Virus record (IMG/VR): IMGVR_UViG_2541047679_000003
Source: a virus
Taxonomy: Duplodnaviria > Heunggongvirae > Uroviricota > Caudoviricetes
Length of the DNA stretch: 35,960 nucleotides
Strand: one strand, 5' to 3'
Below, piece by piece: positions 1-11,496 of this stretch. A model generated the notes under the pieces. That model was not told the DNA's origin, searched no databases, and saw only the letters and a list, made by a program, of their open reading frames with translations. The translations under genes and the position numbers were made by a program. Numbering within the stretch: position 1 is the first letter of the stretch; each line of letters opens with the position of its first letter.

Positions 1-820
1 AAACCAAGGTAATTGAGGACATCTTTTATACTGCCCTTAGCGATAATAGCGCGACCAATAGCTGTAAGGGTTGCCAGCTCTGCGCGGTCTGCTCCGGTAA
101 AATAAGGCAACCGATCTGCTGCAGTGGCAAGTCCTGCCAGAGCAGTGAGCGTGGCATCTGCCGGTTGTTTTCCGTTTGCCAGATCGTATGCAGCCTTGAC
201 CGCTTTCGGTGTGGCGGCCAGTATTTCAGACGTGCTGTTGATGGCACTGCTCAATTGTACGGTGCCTTTTGCCGTCAGCGAGGCAGCAGGCACTCCCGTT
301 ATCTGACTCCACGGGTGAGTGTGGCTGACGGGCGCCTTGCCGGCTGCAAGGTCGTATGCAGCCTTGACCGCCTTCGGCGTGGCAGCCTCAGTTTCTGATT
401 GACTGTCCGTGGCGCTGCTCAGTTGTACGGTGCCTTTTGCCGTCAGTGAAGCCGCAGGCACTCCCGTTATCTGACTCCACGGGTGAGTGTGGCTGGCAGG
501 CGCCTTGCCGGCTGCCAGGTCGTATGCAGCCTTGACCGCTTTTGGTGTGGCGGCCAGCGTTTCAGAGGTGCTGTTGGTGGCACTGCTCAGTTGGGTGAAC
601 CCCTTAGCTGTCAGTGTCGCGTCCGGGTGGTTACGGGAACGTACGTGTTCAGCCAGTGACTGTGCGGCTTCCTCCGTTTTCTTCTTCAGCCATTTCGTCC
701 TGTTTGCCAGTTGCCGGGGGGCTCGATTTGATATCCCGTCTGCACCACCCAGAACCGGATCTGATGTCTCCAGTTGATAGATATTTTCTTCCCACTTTTC
801 TGTTTCATTCAGGTTTCCCA
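1..820 (-). CDS. tail fibre protein, partial (ATG at 820, runs off window start)
   Basis: Own translation of the minus strand from 820: MGNLNETEKWEENIYQLETSDPVLGGADGISNRAPRQLANRTKWLKK... followed by three 56-aa repeats of the type ...TAKGxxQLSSATxSxSEtxAATPKAVKAAYDLA..., typical of phage tail fibre proteins; SD GGGAG upstream; not in the ORF track because no stop lies in the window. Confidence 0.75.
165..600. repeat. three tandem 168-bp direct repeats inside the tail fibre gene
   Basis: tcgtatgcagccttgaccgc recurs at 184, 352 and 520 with surrounding near-identical sequence; period 168 bp = 56 codons, in frame. Confidence 0.8.
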
Positions 821-3487: not shown

Positions 3488-4638
3488 TTTTTCTTCTCCT
3501 TAATCACCGTCGATGTACTGCCATCCGGGTGATAAACCGTGAGTTTCTGAGTTTTTTGTTTTTTCCCTCTTGTGACTGGCCCCCGTGCCACTTCCAGCTC
3601 TGTGGTGTAGCCGCTGTTACGGTCAAACGCATGGCGGGCAGTGGTTATGAGCCATGGCCCGGATAACTGCCCAAAACTCACCAGTTCAATTTTGTTGCCT
3701 GCTGTCAGTTGAGGTGTTCCCGTCAGCGTCAGGGAGCCGTTCTGCTGGTATTCGTTATGTCTGGCCAGTGCTGAATCCGCTTTAATCCGGGCACTGTCCG
3801 GGTCGCTGACGCGGCTGTTAACTTTAAGTGAGTCAGCGCTGGTAACCTTACCACCTTTGAGCTTTTTGTCGCTTTCACGGGTACCACCATCAGCTTCGTA
3901 GACGATCAGTTTTTTACTGCTGCTTTTCTGGTGTTTTACCTTTGCAGATTTATAGACCCGGTTGATGGTGTCACGCAGGGAAAAGCGGGCCACATCCTGC
4001 GGTTTTAACTGCCTGACCGGCTCCTGACTGCGCAGTGTGGCCAGATGAGAAAAAATCAGCTGGTCACTGACCACTTTCACTGCATAACCATACTCGCTGG
4101 CCAGCCGGCGCAGAAAACCCACGTCGGTTTCAGCATACTGGGTCACCCGGTCGATTCTGATGGACTCAATGCTGCCCACCAGTTTCAGCCGGTGCTTTCT
4201 GGCAATCCGCCCCGCAACAGCTGCCAGCGTGGTGTTCTCAAAACCACGACTGGTTTTAGTCCGCAGGGCACTGTTAACCGAGGTGGCCACCCCACGGATA
4301 GAAACAACGGAAGCGGGCGAACTCACTTCGATCTCGTCTATAGAGAACGTACCGCAGGACAGCAGCTTCTCGCCCTGATAGCCCATTTTCAGCGTCAGCG
4401 TGTCACCCTTGCCCGGATACCATTTATCCAGCCAGCGGCCATCGGTGTCGTCCAGCTCCACCTCAATGGTATCGGACTCATTTTTGATGTTATCGCTCCA
4501 GGTCACACGGGTGACATAAGGCGCGATATCAGAGGTGATGTTTTTCTGCAGATACCACAGAGTGAACACCGGTGTCAGCACATCGCTGACGCCGGTTAAC
4601 GCTGATGTGACTTGCGCAGTGCTGTTTATCTCAGCCAT
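3484..4638 (-). CDS. tail protein, P2 gpD / Mu P-like
   Basis: 384-aa ORF in the position of the late control D-family tail protein. Confidence 0.65.
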   Translation of the reverse strand: MAEINSTAQVTSALTGVSDVLTPVFTLWYLQKNITSDIAPYVTRVTWSDNIKNESDTIEVELDDTDGRWLDKWYPGKGDTLTLKMGYQGEKLLSCGTFSIDEIEVSSPASVVSIRGVATSVNSALRTKTSRGFENTTLAAVAGRIARKHRLKLVGSIESIRIDRVTQYAETDVGFLRRLASEYGYAVKVVSDQLIFSHLATLRSQEPVRQLKPQDVARFSLRDTINRVYKSAKVKHQKSSSKKLIVYEADGGTRESDKKLKGGKVTSADSLKVNSRVSDPDSARIKADSALARHNEYQQNGSLTLTGTPQLTAGNKIELVSFGQLSGPWLITTARHAFDRNSGYTTELEVARGPVTRGKKQKTQKLTVYHPDGSTSTVIKEKKK

Positions 4639-4841
4639 GGGGCAATATCCTCTTCTGTACGGGCTTCTTCAGCCTCAATCACCGGGATCAGTAACAACAG
4701 CCCGGAGGGCAGCACCGGCGTGATGGCCACGTGCGGATTGGCGGCAATAATCCGGGGATAGCCCAGCGGGTCACCGTAGTACTGCCATGCCAGCGAATCC
4801 CAGCGCTCTCCGTCACGGGTAACATGTTCAAGAAACATCAC
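4626..4841 (-). CDS. tail protein X-like
   Basis: 71-aa ORF with an RWDSLAWQYYGDP motif typical of P2 gpX-like proteins. Confidence 0.6.
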   Translation of the reverse strand: MMFLEHVTRDGERWDSLAWQYYGDPLGYPRIIAANPHVAITPVLPSGLLLLIPVIEAEEARTEEDIAPWLR

Positions 4842-5722
4842 ACACTCCTCGTCAGTATTCTGGCGGCCATTGCACTTAATCCCGGAGACATGCGGTTGAA
4901 TGCTGTGCCGACGGCGTTAAGCTGCCCGGAAACGGTATCCAGAGCACCTGCAATATTTCTTTTGTCCACACCACTCAGCGCAGACTGTGCCTGCTGTACA
5001 TACGTGGCTGCTTCGCTGGCTGTTCTGGCCAGACTGATGGCATCGGGCATGGATTCAGAGAGTGCGTTAAACGCCGGAACACTTTTCCCCAGAGCCCCGG
5101 AGATATTACCCAGTCCGCTCATCAGCCCCGGCACACGGGTCAGTGCGACAACGGGGTTATCCTTCATTTTCTGTGTCACCCGAACGGCGCTGATAGTGGT
5201 CTGGAGTACAGACTGCGCCTGTTTCGCATAGTTGACGCCGTTGCGGATGAACTGCGCCACCCCTGAAGGTGAAGGTATGGCACCGGAGACCGCCCCGACA
5301 CCCGGGAGCTTCGTGCGTATTGCCGGTGGTTGCAGAGGATTTTTCGGGTCACCGGTGTATTCCCGGAGAGACACGGTGGCACTGACAGCCAGCACGTTGC
5401 CGGTACTGTCAGTCTGCTCGCTGGTTGCAGTCACATCGGTGATCACGAACCAGCCGCGATAGTCACCGTTGCCGAAGACCAGCGCCAGTGCCTGATGGGC
5501 TTTCATGGCTGTTCGCAGTCTCGCCAGCTCCACATCGGGTACACAATAATGCTGATGGAAAACCAGAGTTATCTGGATTTCGTCCAGCCTGTCGCCGACG
5601 AACTGCAGACCAGGCTTACCCCCGATGCGGGCATGCTCCGCATAATCGACGCCGAACGTGGCCTCGAAGCCGTCCCAGTAGGTAATCAGCTCAAACTCAA
5701 TATCACCCAGTACGGCAAACAT
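4838..5722 (-). CDS. tail protein, P2 gpU / Mu N (DNA circularisation)-like
   Basis: 294-aa ORF immediately downstream of the tape measure gene; N-terminus gpU-like. Confidence 0.55.
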   Translation of the reverse strand: MFAVLGDIEFELITYWDGFEATFGVDYAEHARIGGKPGLQFVGDRLDEIQITLVFHQHYCVPDVELARLRTAMKAHQALALVFGNGDYRGWFVITDVTATSEQTDSTGNVLAVSATVSLREYTGDPKNPLQPPAIRTKLPGVGAVSGAIPSPSGVAQFIRNGVNYAKQAQSVLQTTISAVRVTQKMKDNPVVALTRVPGLMSGLGNISGALGKSVPAFNALSESMPDAISLARTASEAATYVQQAQSALSGVDKRNIAGALDTVSGQLNAVGTAFNRMSPGLSAMAARILTRSV

Positions 5723-8673
5723 CAGCGGTACTCCTTACGTTGTTTCTGAGCCAGCAGACGCTCCAGCATTTTTTCCAGCTCATGCAGACTCATATTCAGG
5801 GCACCAGTCAGTCCTGCAGGCGCTGTGGTTTCCCTGCCATTGAGGAAAAACTGAGGATTAAAGCTGACCTGGATACCACCAGACGTTCCACCGCCGGTTG
5901 CAGCTGCACCACGGCCTGAATATCCGGCAGCCAGGATTTCAGGCGAGGGGATACGGGGAACATCCGGTGTCATCTCATTTGCCAGACGTTGCCCTGGTAA
6001 AATCGATGCCCGGGTGGAGAGCGGAATAGCGGGCATGGAAGACAAACTATTGATTACGGCTCCGATCGCATTTTTAGCAGACGACATAAACCCATTGATA
6101 TCGGGCAACGGCATACTGAAGCGAACACCTGAAGTGTTATCCCGTATTTCTGGCCCCTGAATGCTCACGGGCATTCTGGGGAGCAGTTCACTGGCCATTC
6201 GCTGCCCGGCCAGAGCTGCAAGCGGAGTGGTCCGCTGCAGGCCAATGGCGGCCCCCTGCGCGATATTGTCACCAAAGCCCATAAACACGCGGCTCGGCGA
6301 ATGAATGCCCAGCTTTTCGCTGAACCAGCCACTGATGCTGTCGCCCATTCCGGTTACACTGGATTTGAGCGACTCCCATTTGTTTTTGATACCGTTAATC
6401 AGACCATCGACAAGATGGCCACCGAAGTCGGTAAACTTTGCCGGCAGATCAACACCAAGATATTTCAGCGCAGCTGCAAAGGCTTTATAGAGCAGACCTG
6501 CCGGCGACCAGTTAATCAGCAGCTTACCAGTTCCCGCGATACCGCCGTTAAAGGCTTCCTGAATGTCAGCCCAGCATTGTTTAAACCAGCTACTGATGCT
6601 GTCACCCATTCCGGTTACACTGGATTTGAGCGACCCCCATTTGTTTTTGATACCGTTAATCAAACCGTCGATAAGATGGCCACCGAAGTCGGTGAACTTT
6701 GCCGGCAGAGTAACGCCGAAATATTTCAGCGCAGCCGCAAAGGCTTTATAGAGCAGGCCTGCCGGCGACCAGTTAATCAGCAGCTTACCAGTTCCCGCGA
6801 TACCGCCGTTAAAGGCTTCCTGAATGTCAGCCCAGCGCTGTTTAAACCAGCCACTGACTGCCCCCCAGTTGCGGTAGATAAGGTAAGCTGCTGCCGCGAC
6901 AGCGGTGATAACGAGACCGATGGGATTCATCATCAGCGCTCGCCCAATCCAGAGAACGGCACGTGCAGCGCTCATAAAACCGCGAACGAGGCTGCCCGCC
7001 AGAACTTTGCTGAGTTTCAGTCCTCCGCTGGTCAGTCGGCTGAATCCAGTGACAAGCCAGCGTAATTTGCCACCTTCTCCGAGTGCGGTAGTCAGTCGAT
7101 GCCAGTTGGTCCGGAGTAAAACAGCAGTTTTCCAGACGTTCACAAAGGGGGAAATAAGGAGATTCAGCCCCAGTTTGAGACCAACAGTCGCTATCTTAAT
7201 CGCAAGGAGCGCACTGATGAGCTTAAAAGCCCCACTGACAAATTGCGGGTGAGTCGCCACCCAGTGTTTTGTCCCCTGAATGAGTGGGAGCAAGTCCTGA
7301 GTCAGAGAAATAAAAGATGGAGCTAATTGATCGCCCAGCGTAATTGCCAGATCGCGACTGCTGACCATAAGTGTTTTAGTGGCTTCAAGGGGAGATTTCA
7401 GCCGCTGATCATAAGCACTGGCAAGCAAATCGTTATCCGCAGCCCTGAGAGCACCGGCACGGATCTCTCGATATCTGTCCATGTTGGCCAGCATCGGGCG
7501 GATAAATGCCATGACCTGCATATCCGCGAACATATCGCCCAGACCAAAGTTTTTCGCCAGAGCCTGAAGTGCCTCATCTCTTGCCGTATCATTCTTTATT
7601 TTCATGGCTGATTTGAAGCCGGCCAGCGCTTCGGGGCTTTTGGCATTGAGGTAACGTTCTATAACACTCAACATCCCTTCAATCGGAGAGATCCCCGCAG
7701 CTTTATAACTCGCAATAGATCCCTGCAAATCAATACCCAGATCAGCAAACTGTTTCTGAGTATCGCGGGCAAAAATTTTGGTAAGAAAGTTTTTAAAATT
7801 ATTGGCTGCTTCGTCGGTGGAACCTGCACCGATTTTTGCTATCTGGAGACTGGCCCCGATTTCAGCAACAGCCTCTTTTCCACTGGCAATACCCGCCATC
7901 ATTGGGGCCAGGGACTGCATCCACTTGACCTGATCCGGGATTTCAAATGACCCCTGGTCACCGGCATAAGCCATAATATTCTGAACGGCACCAAAATCTC
8001 TGGCCGCGCCTTTCAGGGAGTTTTGCCAGACTGCGGCCACTTTTGCCCAGTCCTGAGCAGACGTGCGTGTTGCCGTTGCCGCGCGGGCAATATCCGGCAT
8101 CAGAAAACCGATATCTGACACATTATCAATATTGTCGCTGATGAGTGAACCCATCGCCTCCTGCAGCTCATCCTGATACTGATTGTATTTAAGCGCCCAG
8201 CCTTTTATCTGTCCGGCAAGTGCATCCCGCGTTTTATTGTCATATTTTGCGGTGATCGACATATCAATCATTTTGTCCTGAAAAGACATGGACTGCTGAA
8301 CGGCAGGGGAAACCGTATGATAAACAGTCTGTGCCATGCCATACGCTTCAATCCCCTGACCATACAGCGCCATGCGGTTAGCTTTCAGCGCATCACTGGT
8401 AGCGGATGCCGCTGACAGACGGCGCTGCTGGCGCTCAATTTGCTCCATGGTGCGGCTTACCCGCAGCAGCTCGCTGTTGAGATGCTGCATCCGGGAAGAA
8501 CCCAGTTGACCATAACGTTCTGTTGCACGGGTTAAAGCGTTCTGACGTTCCTGCAGGCGGCGTGAGGTATCGCTCAGGGAATCAAGCGCACGGCGGGTAC
8601 CGCTCATTGCAGAACGGAATGTGCTGCCAATCATCCCGCCGATAACAACGCCGACTGAAAACTGTCCCGACAT
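5722..8673 (-). CDS. tail tape measure protein
   Basis: 983-aa ORF, helical/low-complexity, between chaperone genes and baseplate genes; contains an internal 87-aa tandem duplication. Confidence 0.85.
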   Translation of the reverse strand: MSGQFSVGVVIGGMIGSTFRSAMSGTRRALDSLSDTSRRLQERQNALTRATERYGQLGSSRMQHLNSELLRVSRTMEQIERQQRRLSAASATSDALKANRMALYGQGIEAYGMAQTVYHTVSPAVQQSMSFQDKMIDMSITAKYDNKTRDALAGQIKGWALKYNQYQDELQEAMGSLISDNIDNVSDIGFLMPDIARAATATRTSAQDWAKVAAVWQNSLKGAARDFGAVQNIMAYAGDQGSFEIPDQVKWMQSLAPMMAGIASGKEAVAEIGASLQIAKIGAGSTDEAANNFKNFLTKIFARDTQKQFADLGIDLQGSIASYKAAGISPIEGMLSVIERYLNAKSPEALAGFKSAMKIKNDTARDEALQALAKNFGLGDMFADMQVMAFIRPMLANMDRYREIRAGALRAADNDLLASAYDQRLKSPLEATKTLMVSSRDLAITLGDQLAPSFISLTQDLLPLIQGTKHWVATHPQFVSGAFKLISALLAIKIATVGLKLGLNLLISPFVNVWKTAVLLRTNWHRLTTALGEGGKLRWLVTGFSRLTSGGLKLSKVLAGSLVRGFMSAARAVLWIGRALMMNPIGLVITAVAAAAYLIYRNWGAVSGWFKQRWADIQEAFNGGIAGTGKLLINWSPAGLLYKAFAAALKYFGVTLPAKFTDFGGHLIDGLINGIKNKWGSLKSSVTGMGDSISSWFKQCWADIQEAFNGGIAGTGKLLINWSPAGLLYKAFAAALKYLGVDLPAKFTDFGGHLVDGLINGIKNKWESLKSSVTGMGDSISGWFSEKLGIHSPSRVFMGFGDNIAQGAAIGLQRTTPLAALAGQRMASELLPRMPVSIQGPEIRDNTSGVRFSMPLPDINGFMSSAKNAIGAVINSLSSMPAIPLSTRASILPGQRLANEMTPDVPRIPSPEILAAGYSGRGAAATGGGTSGGIQVSFNPQFFLNGRETTAPAGLTGALNMSLHELEKMLERLLAQKQRKEYR
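6320..6841. repeat. tandem direct duplication (2 x 261 bp) inside the tape measure gene
   Basis: cccattccggttacact at 6344 and 6605 with flanking near-identical sequence; encodes two copies of ...WFKQ[R/C]WADIQEAFNGGIAGTGKLLINWSPAGLLYKAFAAALKY... Confidence 0.85.
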
Positions 8674-8748: not shown

Positions 8749-9006
8749 CTATGATTTGTCGCCGTACTCGCTTTTGATTTGCTCTTCAGCCTGCTCCAGC
8801 CACATCTCCAGATCGTCAGTATCGAGGGCATCAATCTCCCCCGGCTGAAACCGGAACCATCTCGCCAGCAGCCCCTGCGCCTGCGTCAGCGCCCTGGTTG
8901 CTCTCACCCATCCCCGTGATGAGCTGAAATCGTTTCTGTAACTGCAGGTAATCAGCCAGATCCATATTGTCGAGATCCTCCGGGAGAAGACCAGTACTGC
9001 GGGCAA
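8749..9006 (-). other. overlapping extension frame of the tail chaperone (candidate frameshift product C-terminus, E'-like)
   Basis: Frame is closed by a stop immediately upstream (9007-9009) and overlaps the 3' part of the chaperone gene; encodes an acidic helical tail ...FQPGEIDALDTDDLEMWLEQAEEQIKSEYGDKS. Confidence 0.4.
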
Positions 9007-9166
9007 TCAGCGGTTCGTCCCAGTCTGCCGGGTTTTTGCTGATTTTGCGCACCTGCTTCAGGTCTTTTACCGTCAGGCGTTTCAGTTCAACCAGCTCAAT
9101 TCTGGTGCCTGCAGCAGTGGTGAAGGGATAAGACAATTTAAAAGTATCGGATGGGGTCTGTGACAT
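8831..9166 (-). CDS. tail assembly chaperone, P2 gpE-like
   Basis: 111-aa ORF immediately upstream of the tape measure gene, ATG at 9166 with AGGAG SD; Gly/Ala-rich C-terminus. Confidence 0.55.
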   Translation of the reverse strand: MSQTPSDTFKLSYPFTTAAGTRIELVELKRLTVKDLKQVRKISKNPADWDEPLIARSTGLLPEDLDNMDLADYLQLQKRFQLITGMGESNQGADAGAGAAGEMVPVSAGGD

Positions 9167-9263: not shown

Positions 9264-9545
9264 TCAGCAAGTGCGAAACCCCTTGCAGTTACGCAGGAAA
9301 GCGATGAGAAGCGTCTTTCCCTCAGATTTGCCGATGCCGGAGAACCAGTGGTCGGGAGGCTCCCATGCTTCAATCAAATCCGCCAGTTTGCGGGCCTTTG
9401 AACGTGTGCAGTCAATCGGGTCATTGGTTTTACGGGTATTAAAAAGGGTTTCCACCCCCGGAATATCAAGGAGGGTAAACCACGTACCATTTGACATGCC
9501 CAGTGCCGCACATCGTCCTCCTTTATCCGTCAGTTCAACACTCAC
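9264..9545 (-). CDS. hypothetical protein (GTG start)
   Basis: 93-aa ORF between the tube and chaperone genes; start is GTG with a weak SD, so uncertain. Confidence 0.3.
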   Translation of the reverse strand: MSVELTDKGGRCAALGMSNGTWFTLLDIPGVETLFNTRKTNDPIDCTRSKARKLADLIEAWEPPDHWFSGIGKSEGKTLLIAFLRNCKGFRTC

Positions 9546-9547
9546 CG

Positions 9548-10069
9548 TCAGCCCCCGATATTGATACGGTAGTCAGTCAGTTGATCAACACCGCCGACCC
9601 GGAAGATGTTGGCCAGATAGTCCAGTTGCAGCAGCTCTTCACCATCCAGTACCTGTCTGATATACGTGCAGGTGAAGCTACTGGAGAACTCGGCGTTCTC
9701 GTGCTGTTTGAACGTCCCCAGCGGGTTCTTCTTGAACATAATCGTCAGGAAGGTGACCAGCGGGATTTCGTCAATCAGCCCCTGCGAGCTGTAGCGCTGG
9801 ACGCTGGAACGACACTGCAGTGCCAGCGACCTGTACGGGTTCGCGGCAGACAGCATCGCATCGCGGTAAAAGCTGTTCCATTTGATTTCGCCTTCCAGTT
9901 TGTCAAAACCAGCCGGGAGTTCCACCTTACCCACCATCCCCAGCGCCTTGTGTTCCTGCATAATCATGGAGACATCGGGGAGTTTAACTTCCTCAGCCCG
10001 TCCCAGCAGGTTAGTACCATCCAGATAGATGTTGGCATTCGTGATGCGGTTTATCTCAATCTTTGACAT
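9548..10069 (-). CDS. tail tube protein, P2 FII-like
   Basis: 173-aa ORF directly downstream of the sheath gene. Confidence 0.75.
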   Translation of the reverse strand: MSKIEINRITNANIYLDGTNLLGRAEEVKLPDVSMIMQEHKALGMVGKVELPAGFDKLEGEIKWNSFYRDAMLSAANPYRSLALQCRSSVQRYSSQGLIDEIPLVTFLTIMFKKNPLGTFKQHENAEFSSSFTCTYIRQVLDGEELLQLDYLANIFRVGGVDQLTDYRINIGG

Positions 10070-11496
10070 CAGTTGCCCCCTTTCAGGGTTAACAGGTATT
10101 CCGAGGTGATCTCAGTCTCAAACGTCAGTCGCTCCAGCGGCGGTGGTGGCGTATATTTGTAGCTCAGCAACAGGTGCCCGGCGGCCAGCTCCGTCTCCGG
10201 ATTGCGGGCCGGATCAAACCAGCAACGGAAGCCCAGTACCGCACCATCACCAGTCATTTTGCGACCGTAGGCGTTGACCGACTCCGTCAGTGCATCAATC
10301 AGCGCCTGAGTAATCGGCATGTCGATGTACTGCTGGCTGAAATAACGAATGGACTCGTTGATCACATCACCGGTGCGGCGAACGTTCTCAAAGTTACGCA
10401 TATGGGTGACCGTTGGCCATGCTGCCGTCCGGTTACCCCACAGACGAAGGCCGCTGCCGTAACTGCTGAATACCGTGGTGATCCCCTGTTCGTTAAGCAG
10501 GTTCACCTCACTCTGCGGGTCATCAATCATCGCGGACAGCTGGCGCTCCACGCCGGTGATCCCCAGAATCTCCTGATTGGAGGATGACCACCAGTAGCCC
10601 TTGTCCAGATCGACTCTGGCACGCAGACCTGCTGCACGCTGGCTGAGCGGCTCCAGACGCTCTGTGTTTGTCACCGGGTCATATACCTTCACATGCGGAT
10701 AGCACAGACGGACGCGGTCGGAGCTGGTATTGAAGTTGATGGTGCCTTCCGGGCCACGACCTGCCAGAGCCTGTGCAAAGGTGGTACCGACAGGCGCATC
10801 AATGTAGGTTACCGCGCCCAGCTTCTCTGCCATGGCGATAAGCTCAACTGCGACACTCTTCTGGGTGCAGAACACCGGCGCAATCAGAATTTTGGCGAAA
10901 TAGCCGTACAGGTTGAAGCTGTCGTTAAGCAGCTTCATGCCGGTTCGGTTTCCGGCGCTGTTCACCCCGCCGATGATGTCCGCCGCAGTCACCTTCGACG
11001 GGTCCGCGTACTCATAGCTCACCTTCACGCTGCCACCGGCCTCAATAGCCTTGCCCAGGTTCGTGAGCACACCCGCCTGCGCATCAACACGGTAGTCCGT
11101 GTTCGCCGTGTGGGTGGTGCTGCCTTCACTGTTTTTCACCACCACATTAGCGACAACCGGATGCGCCAGTCTGGCCTGCCCTGTCGATTTGTCAAAGGTA
11201 ACCACCTCATCCTCGATCGCCGTTTTATGTTTCGCCGGGTCGAGGACGTTAATGACCAGAACGGTGCCTGCACCATGGTCATAAATCGCATCCAGCGCCT
11301 GCGGAATGGTAAAGCCGGTGAACTGGCTGCCAAATGCCGCTGCGTCTTTCTCAGACAGGCACTGTACCAGCGTATTGACATCCCCCATCGGGGCGGTACC
11401 AATCAGGCCAATAACGGCAGATTTCACCGTTTTAACCGGGCGGGCACCGTTTTCCACCTCAATGGTTTCGGGACCATGCAGATAGTTAGCTGCCAT
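10069..11496 (-). CDS. contractile tail sheath protein
   Basis: 475-aa ORF, ATG at 11496 with GGAGGA SD, sheath-tube gene order. Confidence 0.85.
   Translation of the reverse strand: MAANYLHGPETIEVENGARPVKTVKSAVIGLIGTAPMGDVNTLVQCLSEKDAAAFGSQFTGFTIPQALDAIYDHGAGTVLVINVLDPAKHKTAIEDEVVTFDKSTGQARLAHPVVANVVVKNSEGSTTHTANTDYRVDAQAGVLTNLGKAIEAGGSVKVSYEYADPSKVTAADIIGGVNSAGNRTGMKLLNDSFNLYGYFAKILIAPVFCTQKSVAVELIAMAEKLGAVTYIDAPVGTTFAQALAGRGPEGTINFNTSSDRVRLCYPHVKVYDPVTNTERLEPLSQRAAGLRARVDLDKGYWWSSSNQEILGITGVERQLSAMIDDPQSEVNLLNEQGITTVFSSYGSGLRLWGNRTAAWPTVTHMRNFENVRRTGDVINESIRYFSQQYIDMPITQALIDALTESVNAYGRKMTGDGAVLGFRCWFDPARNPETELAAGHLLLSYKYTPPPPLERLTFETEITSEYLLTLKGGN

Follow-up and report, generated by a model that had tools for sequence, protein, structure and literature searches.

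How, if at all, is the second open reading frame (ORF) that overlaps the tail assembly chaperone gene of a Mu-like Escherichia coli prophage expressed? The window analysed here, a 35,960-nt stretch of caudoviricete DNA (IMG/VR record IMGVR_UViG_2541047679_000003), carries such an overlap on its minus strand, to which all window features named below belong. Its source element is a Mu-like E. coli prophage, and the region matches an isolated Mu-like transposable myovirus, Escherichia phage PhiKM (PQ738613.1, listed under Bcepmuvirus), at 100% identity. We conclude with good confidence, from comparison of related sequences, that a second and longer chaperone would be made by a +1 slip at a conserved CGA_UUU_C site (8932..8926; CGA Arg79 at 8932..8930, UUU Phe80 at 8929..8927, skipped C at 8926), and that this +1 frameshift of the tail chaperone type is genuine, conserved and probably programmed.

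Structurally, the overlap is as a preliminary description of the locus had it, with a 111-aa chaperone in frame 0 (9166..8831) and an open +1 frame of 85 codons plus a TAG stop (9006..8749), the latter closed upstream by a TGA at 9009..9007. The chaperone matches PF10109 (Phage_TAC_7, E-value 5.5e-21) over residues 8-81 with 74.8 bits against a cutoff of 25, as well as PHROG 166 ‘tail protein’, and is the equivalent of lambda gpG, P2 gpE and Mu gp41 (PF10109 carries the name ‘E, or 41 or 14’), while the open frame matches PHROG 8286 (E-value 2.7e-34). Codon starts on the minus strand fall at p≡1 mod 3 in the chaperone and p≡0 mod 3 in the extension, which places the latter in the +1 (equivalently -2) frame, and the overlap holds no in-phase X_XXY_YYZ heptamer, both again as described; the chaperone gene has a single such heptamer, A_AAC_CCG, at codon 45, before the overlap begins. 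The description had likened the arrangement to the lambda G/GT and P2 E/E+E' frameshifts, a parallel that is borne out by gene position, the PF10109 match, the conservation of the extension, and its distant homology to P2 E+E'. The gene order of tube, chaperone and tape measure likewise fits a tail assembly chaperone frameshift pair.

A lack of conservation of the extension frame in relatives had been named in that description as evidence against a frameshift. We collected 127 related loci spanning Enterobacterales, Burkholderiales, Pseudomonas and others, in which the chaperone domain and the extension were located by hidden Markov models (HMMs). The extension proved conserved, lying in the +1 frame in 125 of the 127 loci; Pasteurella phage AFS-2018a has it in the -1 frame, and in two loci with 1-nt deletions it is in frame with the chaperone. 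Searches with tblastn recovered the extension peptide in Salmonella, Ralstonia, Pseudomonas and Pasteurella phages or prophages. Selection was assessed from the ratio of nonsynonymous to synonymous changes (pN/pS), using Nei-Gojobori counts along a minimum spanning tree of the 91 unique +1 sequences, which form nine clusters at 60% identity. Upstream of Phe80, pN/pS is 0.26 in frame 0 versus 1.19 in frame +1, but at F+30..40 the values are 1.37 versus 0.49, and over the segment LLARWFRFQPGE they are 3.61 versus 0.12. Purifying selection passes from frame 0 to frame +1 downstream of the slip site; beyond residue 80, therefore, frame 0 reads through +1-coding sequence and its tail is unconstrained. 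Residues 1-80 of the chaperone make up its conserved domain, and frame-0 conservation is absent from the Gly/Ala-rich tail of residues 81-111. These data bear directly on the notion that the overlap has no function, as a degenerating relic or a random ORF, which is scarcely credible. The element is a prophage, copies at two of our loci (L027 and L127) carry indels, and the tape measure gene is annotated as a pseudogene in one E. coli genome, but even distantly related lineages show strong purifying selection on the +1 frame. A 700-base stretch of this region is moreover found, mostly at 99% identity or more, in 641 of 5,426 complete E. coli genomes, and the sequence recurs in the isolated phage PhiKM.

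Where, then, would ribosomes change frame? At the codon equivalent to Phe80, TTT followed by C is found in all 91 unique +1 contexts, and it is kept even in loci of 58-66% G+C, where TTT accounts for only 3-31% of Phe codons. The frame-0 residue that follows Phe is variable (Q, R, L or H), but its first base is invariably C, and the constraint is therefore on the nucleotide and not on the amino acid. Stop codons in both frames delimit the shift, since across all +1 loci the +1 frame is open from -8 nt relative to the Phe codon and the earliest frame-0 stop starts at +21 nt, leaving a permissible interval of -8 to about +23 nt around TTT_C. In three betaproteobacterial loci (L041-L043) the entire overlap is only 32 nt (CC GAC ACC TTT CGC AGC ATG GTG GAC AAC TGA). 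Within the interval, TTT_C is the sole site at which a tRNA could re-pair by cognate pairing in the new frame, and a -2 move at UUU_C would put the tRNA on GAU, where re-pairing is impossible; the direction is therefore +1, which settles a choice between +1 and -2 that the preliminary description, correct as to the frame, had left open. Pseudomonas phage Bise, with GCA_TTT_CAA and a +1 extension, provides an extra case.

Several observations weigh against this placement, or against an efficient shift. The intersection of intervals presumes one common site for all relatives, and enterobacterial prophages that are close kin supply many of the 91 contexts; the effective sample is about 9 to 28 lineages. 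Over F+1..F+8, pN/pS is 0.66 in frame 0 and 0.56 in frame +1, and because selection does not separate the frames there, the exact slip codon rests on the stop-codon bounds together with the invariant TTT_C. The preliminary description had proposed mapping slip sites and downstream RNA structures alongside an alignment of homologous chaperone genes; the mapping and the alignment place the site at CGA_UUU_C, but the structure search found no conserved downstream RNA structure (consensus -0.25 kcal/mol; window folds with z of -0.4 and -1.1), and the efficiency of the shift could therefore be low. No upstream Shine-Dalgarno-like element was seen in the aligned contexts, as judged by eye, and the A-site codon of the window, CAG, is not known as a slow or rare one. 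Transcriptional slippage was set aside, as no homopolymer longer than 3 nt is conserved at the site.

Could the +1 frame instead be translated separately, by internal initiation or coupling, into a small GpE-like protein with no frameshift at all? The preliminary description had held independent translation to be precluded, which was correct insofar as no start codon is conserved but too strong in that candidate starts exist in the window, namely a TTG at 9006 and, preceded by GGGGA, a GTG whose first base is 22 nt past the initial T of TTT. Some pipelines do call the ORF as a gene (stray calls are named ‘GpE family phage tail protein’ by NCBI), and the record of Burkholderia phage BcepMu lists its counterpart as gp42. 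In the relatives, though, 25 of the 91 unique sequences have no ATG, GTG or TTG in the +1 frame before the conserved core, an ATG is present in only 13, and the position is never conserved, and therefore independent translation is not the conserved route. The 32-nt overlaps are moreover too short for a start site, the homologous P2 E' is annotated as joined to E by a -1 frameshift, and separate translation leaves the invariant TTT_C unexplained. Taken with these observations, separate translation seems highly improbable.

The first candidate for a slip site had been a different one, a GGGGG run (8838..8842) in GCC_GGG_GGA_GAT_TGA, two codons ahead of the frame-0 stop. A shift at GCC_GGG_GGA (8842..8837) could be a Mu-like -2 move (tRNA-Gly from GGA to GGG) or a +1 move (GGG to GGG), giving a product …PVSAG(G)EIDAL… with a junction reading …VSAGEIDALDTDDLEMWLEQAEEQIK or …VSAGGEIDAL…, and we now regard it as very unlikely. 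Five Gs close to a stop do recall the verified -2 site of Mu (A_CGG_GGG_CGA), cognate re-pairing is feasible both ways, and some assemblies contain ORFs fused at exactly this point (proteins P0007 and P0009, locus L127). Alignment with phages KP12 and Phi06_2974B and the wider survey led us to reject the run as a conserved Mu-like site: in KP12, Phi06_2974B and 34 unique contexts a frame-0 TAG lies upstream of it, L066, near-identical to the window phage, ends frame 0 at codon 92, and BcepMu and others end frame 0 before the LLxxL motif. A shift there would also leave out LLARWFRFQP, the segment with a pN/pS of 0.12 in frame +1 and 3.61 in frame 0. The run itself merely encodes Pro-Gly-Glu of the extension (Pro-Ser-Glu in other clades), and GGG_GGA of the window is in another phase than the Mu-type -2 site and lies downstream of the frame-0 stop in close relatives. 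As for the ORFs fused at this run, they result from 1-nt homopolymer deletions, typical of read or assembly error.

Fused chaperone ORFs of this kind, arising from 1-nt deletions in short G-runs (GGGGG, CAGGGC, ACGGGGA), are numerous in public assemblies and include proteins P0007, P0009, P0023, P0028, P0060 and P0093 and loci L027 and L127; an Apirhabdus fused ORF has the deletion 13 nt before TTT. Sequencing errors in homopolymers probably account for these ORFs, although some could be real pre-fused alleles. The other fusion points seen in database ORFs, CAG_GGC, GCA_GGG_GCT and ACG_GGG_ATG, were rejected as slip sites, being neither conserved nor upstream of the frame-0 stops in L066 or L041-L043.

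With the shift placed at TTT_C, the codon before it deserves attention. The Arg79-equivalent codon is CGA in 78 of the 80 contexts that bear Arg at this position, compared with about 10% CGA among other Arg codons of the same loci; this position is not read in +1, and the bias therefore suggests that CGA acts in the E site, or else in the P site with Phe-tRNA binding out of frame. The second of these would amount to a Ty3-like mechanism with the same site and product, in which tRNA-Arg(ICG) sits on P-site CGA with a distorted I:A wobble and Phe-tRNA binds the +1 UUC without any slippage. CGA has been tied to frameshifting in yeast (PMC6301793), and the CGA_AAG of Bacillus subtilis cdd appears, from the references of PMC5009743, to be frameshift-linked. 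However, a non-Arg codon (GTG, TCC, ACC, ATC, GCC, ACA, GCG or TCG) precedes TTT in six of the nine clusters and TTT_C is still kept; furthermore, frame 0 retains TTT and never TTC, which slippage of tRNA-Phe needs, whereas out-of-frame binding at UUC would need only NUU_C. We thus consider the Ty3-like route unlikely and prefer slippage of tRNA-Phe, with the flanking codons, CGA included, as its possible stimulators. The branches without Arg read NNC_TTT_CGC or GTG_TTT_CGG, near the motif of influenza PA-X.

Mechanistically, we posit that most ribosomes would stay in frame 0 and yield the 111-aa chaperone, while occasionally the tRNA-Phe in the P site would move one base forward, from UUU to UUC, gaining better pairing through a G:C in place of a G·U pair. 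In E. coli (argI), UUU-pyrimidine is reportedly prone to +1 shifts (Fu & Parker 1994; Schwartz & Curran 1997). For influenza PA-X, slippage of P-site tRNA-Phe on UUU_C is established, the single tRNA-Phe binding UUC more tightly than UUU (PMC3498833). A +1 slip on UUU_CGN has been proposed for plant amalgaviruses (PMC5052127), and an E. coli cell-free screen placed P-site UUU among the most shift-prone codons (bioRxiv 10.1101/2025.10.02.679949). The slip would yield a 138-aa fusion (join 9166..8927 + 8925..8749), the GT-like counterpart of P2 E+E', in which the chaperone domain is followed by a helical extension related to P2 E'; only 8925..8752 of the +1 frame (58 codons) would be translated, as a C-terminal extension. 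The predicted sequence runs …DYLQLQKRF|SSSRGWVRATRALTQAQGLLARWFRFQPGEIDALDTDDLEMWLEQAEEQIKSEYGDKS, with the junction …LQKRF|SSSRGW…LLARWFRFQPGEID… and a predicted tryptic junction peptide F-SSSR after cleavage at KR.

Evolutionarily, the extension appears distantly homologous to the E' part of P2 E+E'. A profile built from the fused proteins aligned to P2 E+E' over 120 columns (hhalign probability 90.6%, E-value 1.3e-6), the fused sequence matched PF10109 with an E-value of 2.3e-22, and the T-domain HMM matched the -1 frame of P2 (E-value 1.7e-4). The match to PF06528 (Phage_P2_GpE) covered profile positions 4-36 of 37 with E-values of 0.01-0.0015, the value of 0.0015 being that for the fused sequence, and 15.8-18.4 bits, below the cutoff of 23, and NCBIfam gave no match for either the chaperone or the extension part. 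An AlphaFold2 model of the naturally fused variant P0023 had a predicted local distance difference test score (pLDDT) of 69 overall and showed a domain of a β-hairpin plus helices, with block-mean pLDDT of 73-82 over residues 11-80 and 52-67 in the extension helices. Its best matches in BFVD, which holds predicted viral structures, were tail assembly chaperones including Mu FS-gp41; no solved relative was found in the PDB by sequence search or by fold search with this model.

Functionally, in lambda the tape measure protein is bound by the chaperone, and the tail tube, or major tail, protein by its extension (PMC5009743). If the window gene works as lambda G/GT and P2 E/E+E' do, the N-terminal domain shared by both its products would coat the tape measure protein, and the rare extension would bring in tail tube protein, allowing the tube to polymerise to its proper length. 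We infer the ribosomal shift itself, its efficiency, and the binding partners of the two products.

Of the known systems, P2 gpE/gpE+E' occupies the same gene position between tube and tape measure, belongs to the same chaperone Pfam family (judged by the PF10109 name), and slips on a Phe UUU at the same boundary between two domains into a homologous extension. The directions differ, as P2 shifts -1 at T_TTT_TTG (GGT_TTT_TTG, U6G) and the window would shift +1 on UUU_C, with the extensions in opposite alternative frames. Wolbachia phage WO (GGT TTT TTG) and Vibrio phage Valp1 (G_GGT_TTT_A) share with P2 a -1 site on the Phe codon at this domain boundary and a -1 extension, and Pasteurella phage AFS-2018a has Leu at the Phe column and a -1 heptamer, A_AAG_GGA, farther downstream. 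The family thus appears to reach homologous extensions by -1 shifts in some relatives and by +1 here. Mu, like the window element, is a transposable myovirus; its chaperone gene also precedes the tape measure gene, and its extension frame can likewise be reached by +1 or -2. Its gp41/FS-gp41 pair is produced by a verified -2 frameshift of about 2.2% efficiency (PMID 15469818, as cited in PMC3498833 and a GenBank note), on C_GGG_GGC near the end of gp41, whereas the conserved site of the window is UUU_C, and the Mu and window extensions have no similarity detectable with the T-domain HMM (E-value above 0.2). Lambda gpG/gpGT (-1 at G_GGA_AAG) follows the same logic of two products in unequal ratio with a shared N-terminus, but it serves a non-contractile tail, shifts -1, and has no detected sequence similarity to the window proteins.

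The slip proposed here is akin to those of influenza A PA-X (UCC_UUU_CGU) and the amalgaviruses (UUU_CGN), which also rely on P-site tRNA-Phe on UUU_C with no known RNA structure, although those sites are read by eukaryotic ribosomes in genes for unrelated proteins, and the window has CAG and not CGN in the A site and CGA in the E site. Firth et al. predicted a class of sites defined by UUU_C with restricted E-site and A-site codons (PMC3498833). As in the PA-X and amalgavirus class, UUU_C is conserved at the 5' end of the +1 ORF with UUU in frame 0; an A-site CGN is absent from the window, and CGC or CGG occurs in 8 of the 91 unique contexts, only in the BcepMu, Pseudomonas and L038 branches. 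The BcepMu branch of the window's family reads the PA-X-like TCC_TTT_CGC. We tentatively entertain, as possible but short of what we would favour outright, the fuller proposition that CGA_UUU_C (NNC_UUU_CGS elsewhere) belongs to the site class predicted by Firth et al. from PA-X and acts in bacteria as a +1 signal independent of RNA structure, that a weakly paired E-site CGA (I:A wobble) tunes slippage of tRNA-Phe, that a -1 U-run on this Phe codon was ancestral to the site, the run having become shorter and the frame having changed, and that about 12% of complete E. coli genomes carry the site without annotation. A +1 direction is uncommon but has precedents: tailed phages use -1, -2 or +1 for the chaperone frameshift depending on the phage (PMC5009743), and 350 forward cases were among the PRFect training examples from SEA-PHAGES annotations (PMC10885494).

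Existing annotations have, in the records inspected, no joined two-frame product; these were PhiKM, KP12, Komp_PAO1_1, Bise, and one RefSeq E. coli genome annotated by the Prokaryotic Genome Annotation Pipeline. The same holds for BcepMu, phiE255 and five other Burkholderia phage records, judged by the feature names at the tblastn matches. BcepMu (AY539836), of the same family and genus-level classification as PhiKM, has a chaperone, gp41, and a +1 extension; its record (4603-5364 in locus L009) designates gp42, a +1 ORF with an internal ATG, as the lambda G analogue and gp43, in frame 0, as the slippage product. Our alignments indicate that gp41 is the chaperone and gp42 its +1 extension, reached via TCC_TTT_CGC and not by slippage from gp42 to gp43, and the slippage-product annotation looks misassigned. 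In Vibrio phage Valp1 and Wolbachia phage WO the -1 extension is called as a separate small ‘hypothetical protein’, and in Pseudomonas phage Bise the +1 extension is not called at all, with no frameshift product annotated in any of the three. We found no paper on a +1 or UUU_C site in BcepMu-like chaperones, though an earlier mention is possible in Xu et al. 2004, Summer et al. 2004, Fu & Parker 1994 or Schwartz & Curran 1997. Most likely the +1 UUU_C chaperone site is a known phage frameshift system in an uncommon direction that genome annotations have missed.

The surrounding genes complete the tail module. Upstream of the chaperone lie the tail sheath gene (11496..10069) and the tail tube gene (10069..9548; PF04985, E-value 2.9e-53), whose product is the presumed binding partner of the extension, and downstream lies the tape measure gene (8673..5722; PF10145, E-value 1.3e-20), encoding the presumed client of the chaperone domain. 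A 93-aa ORF (9545..9264; PHROG 1239, E-value 4.7e-48; weak DUF7739) is inserted between tube and chaperone and is kept in KP12 and E. coli prophages, but a Salmonella relative (L004) is without it and has the chaperone gene directly after the tube gene. A terminator-like hairpin, AGGGGCTCCGGCCCCT then TCTTCTTAAT at 9257-9242, separates this ORF from the chaperone start, which is odd inside a late tail operon. A second, GC-rich and strong hairpin, ACAGCCGC-CAGUA-GCGGCUGU at 8746-8719, sits between the extension stop (8751..8749) and the tape measure start (8673); the 91-nt region has a folding energy of -27.6 kcal/mol (z -3.8), a stability that 0 of 200 shuffles reached, the stem is preserved with a changed loop in KP12 and Phi06_2974B, and no T-tract follows, so that it may be an intercistronic stabiliser or attenuator. 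Within the tape measure gene, a 261-bp unit stands twice in tandem at 6323-6857 with 93% identity, duplicating 87 aa, and the longer tape measure would predict a longer tail. The gene contains a sequencing gap in the GenBank record of PhiKM and is annotated as an incomplete pseudogene in E. coli SK1144, and the tandem repeat may be behind either or both.

Few recoding events in phages are as conserved as the tail chaperone frameshift, which is known mostly as a -1 slip on a heptamer, and a large clade of BcepMu-like prophages in Enterobacterales, Burkholderiales and Pseudomonas appears to use a +1 slip on a four-base site instead. For annotation, this offers a rule for hundreds of genomes, which is to join the two frames at the Phe TTT and skip the next C. 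For recoding, it would be a case of natural bacterial +1 frameshifting on UUU_C with no obvious stimulator and a strongly preferred rare codon in the E site. Finally, the opposite slip directions on the same Phe codon among relatives suggest that a recoding site can switch direction while its product is kept.

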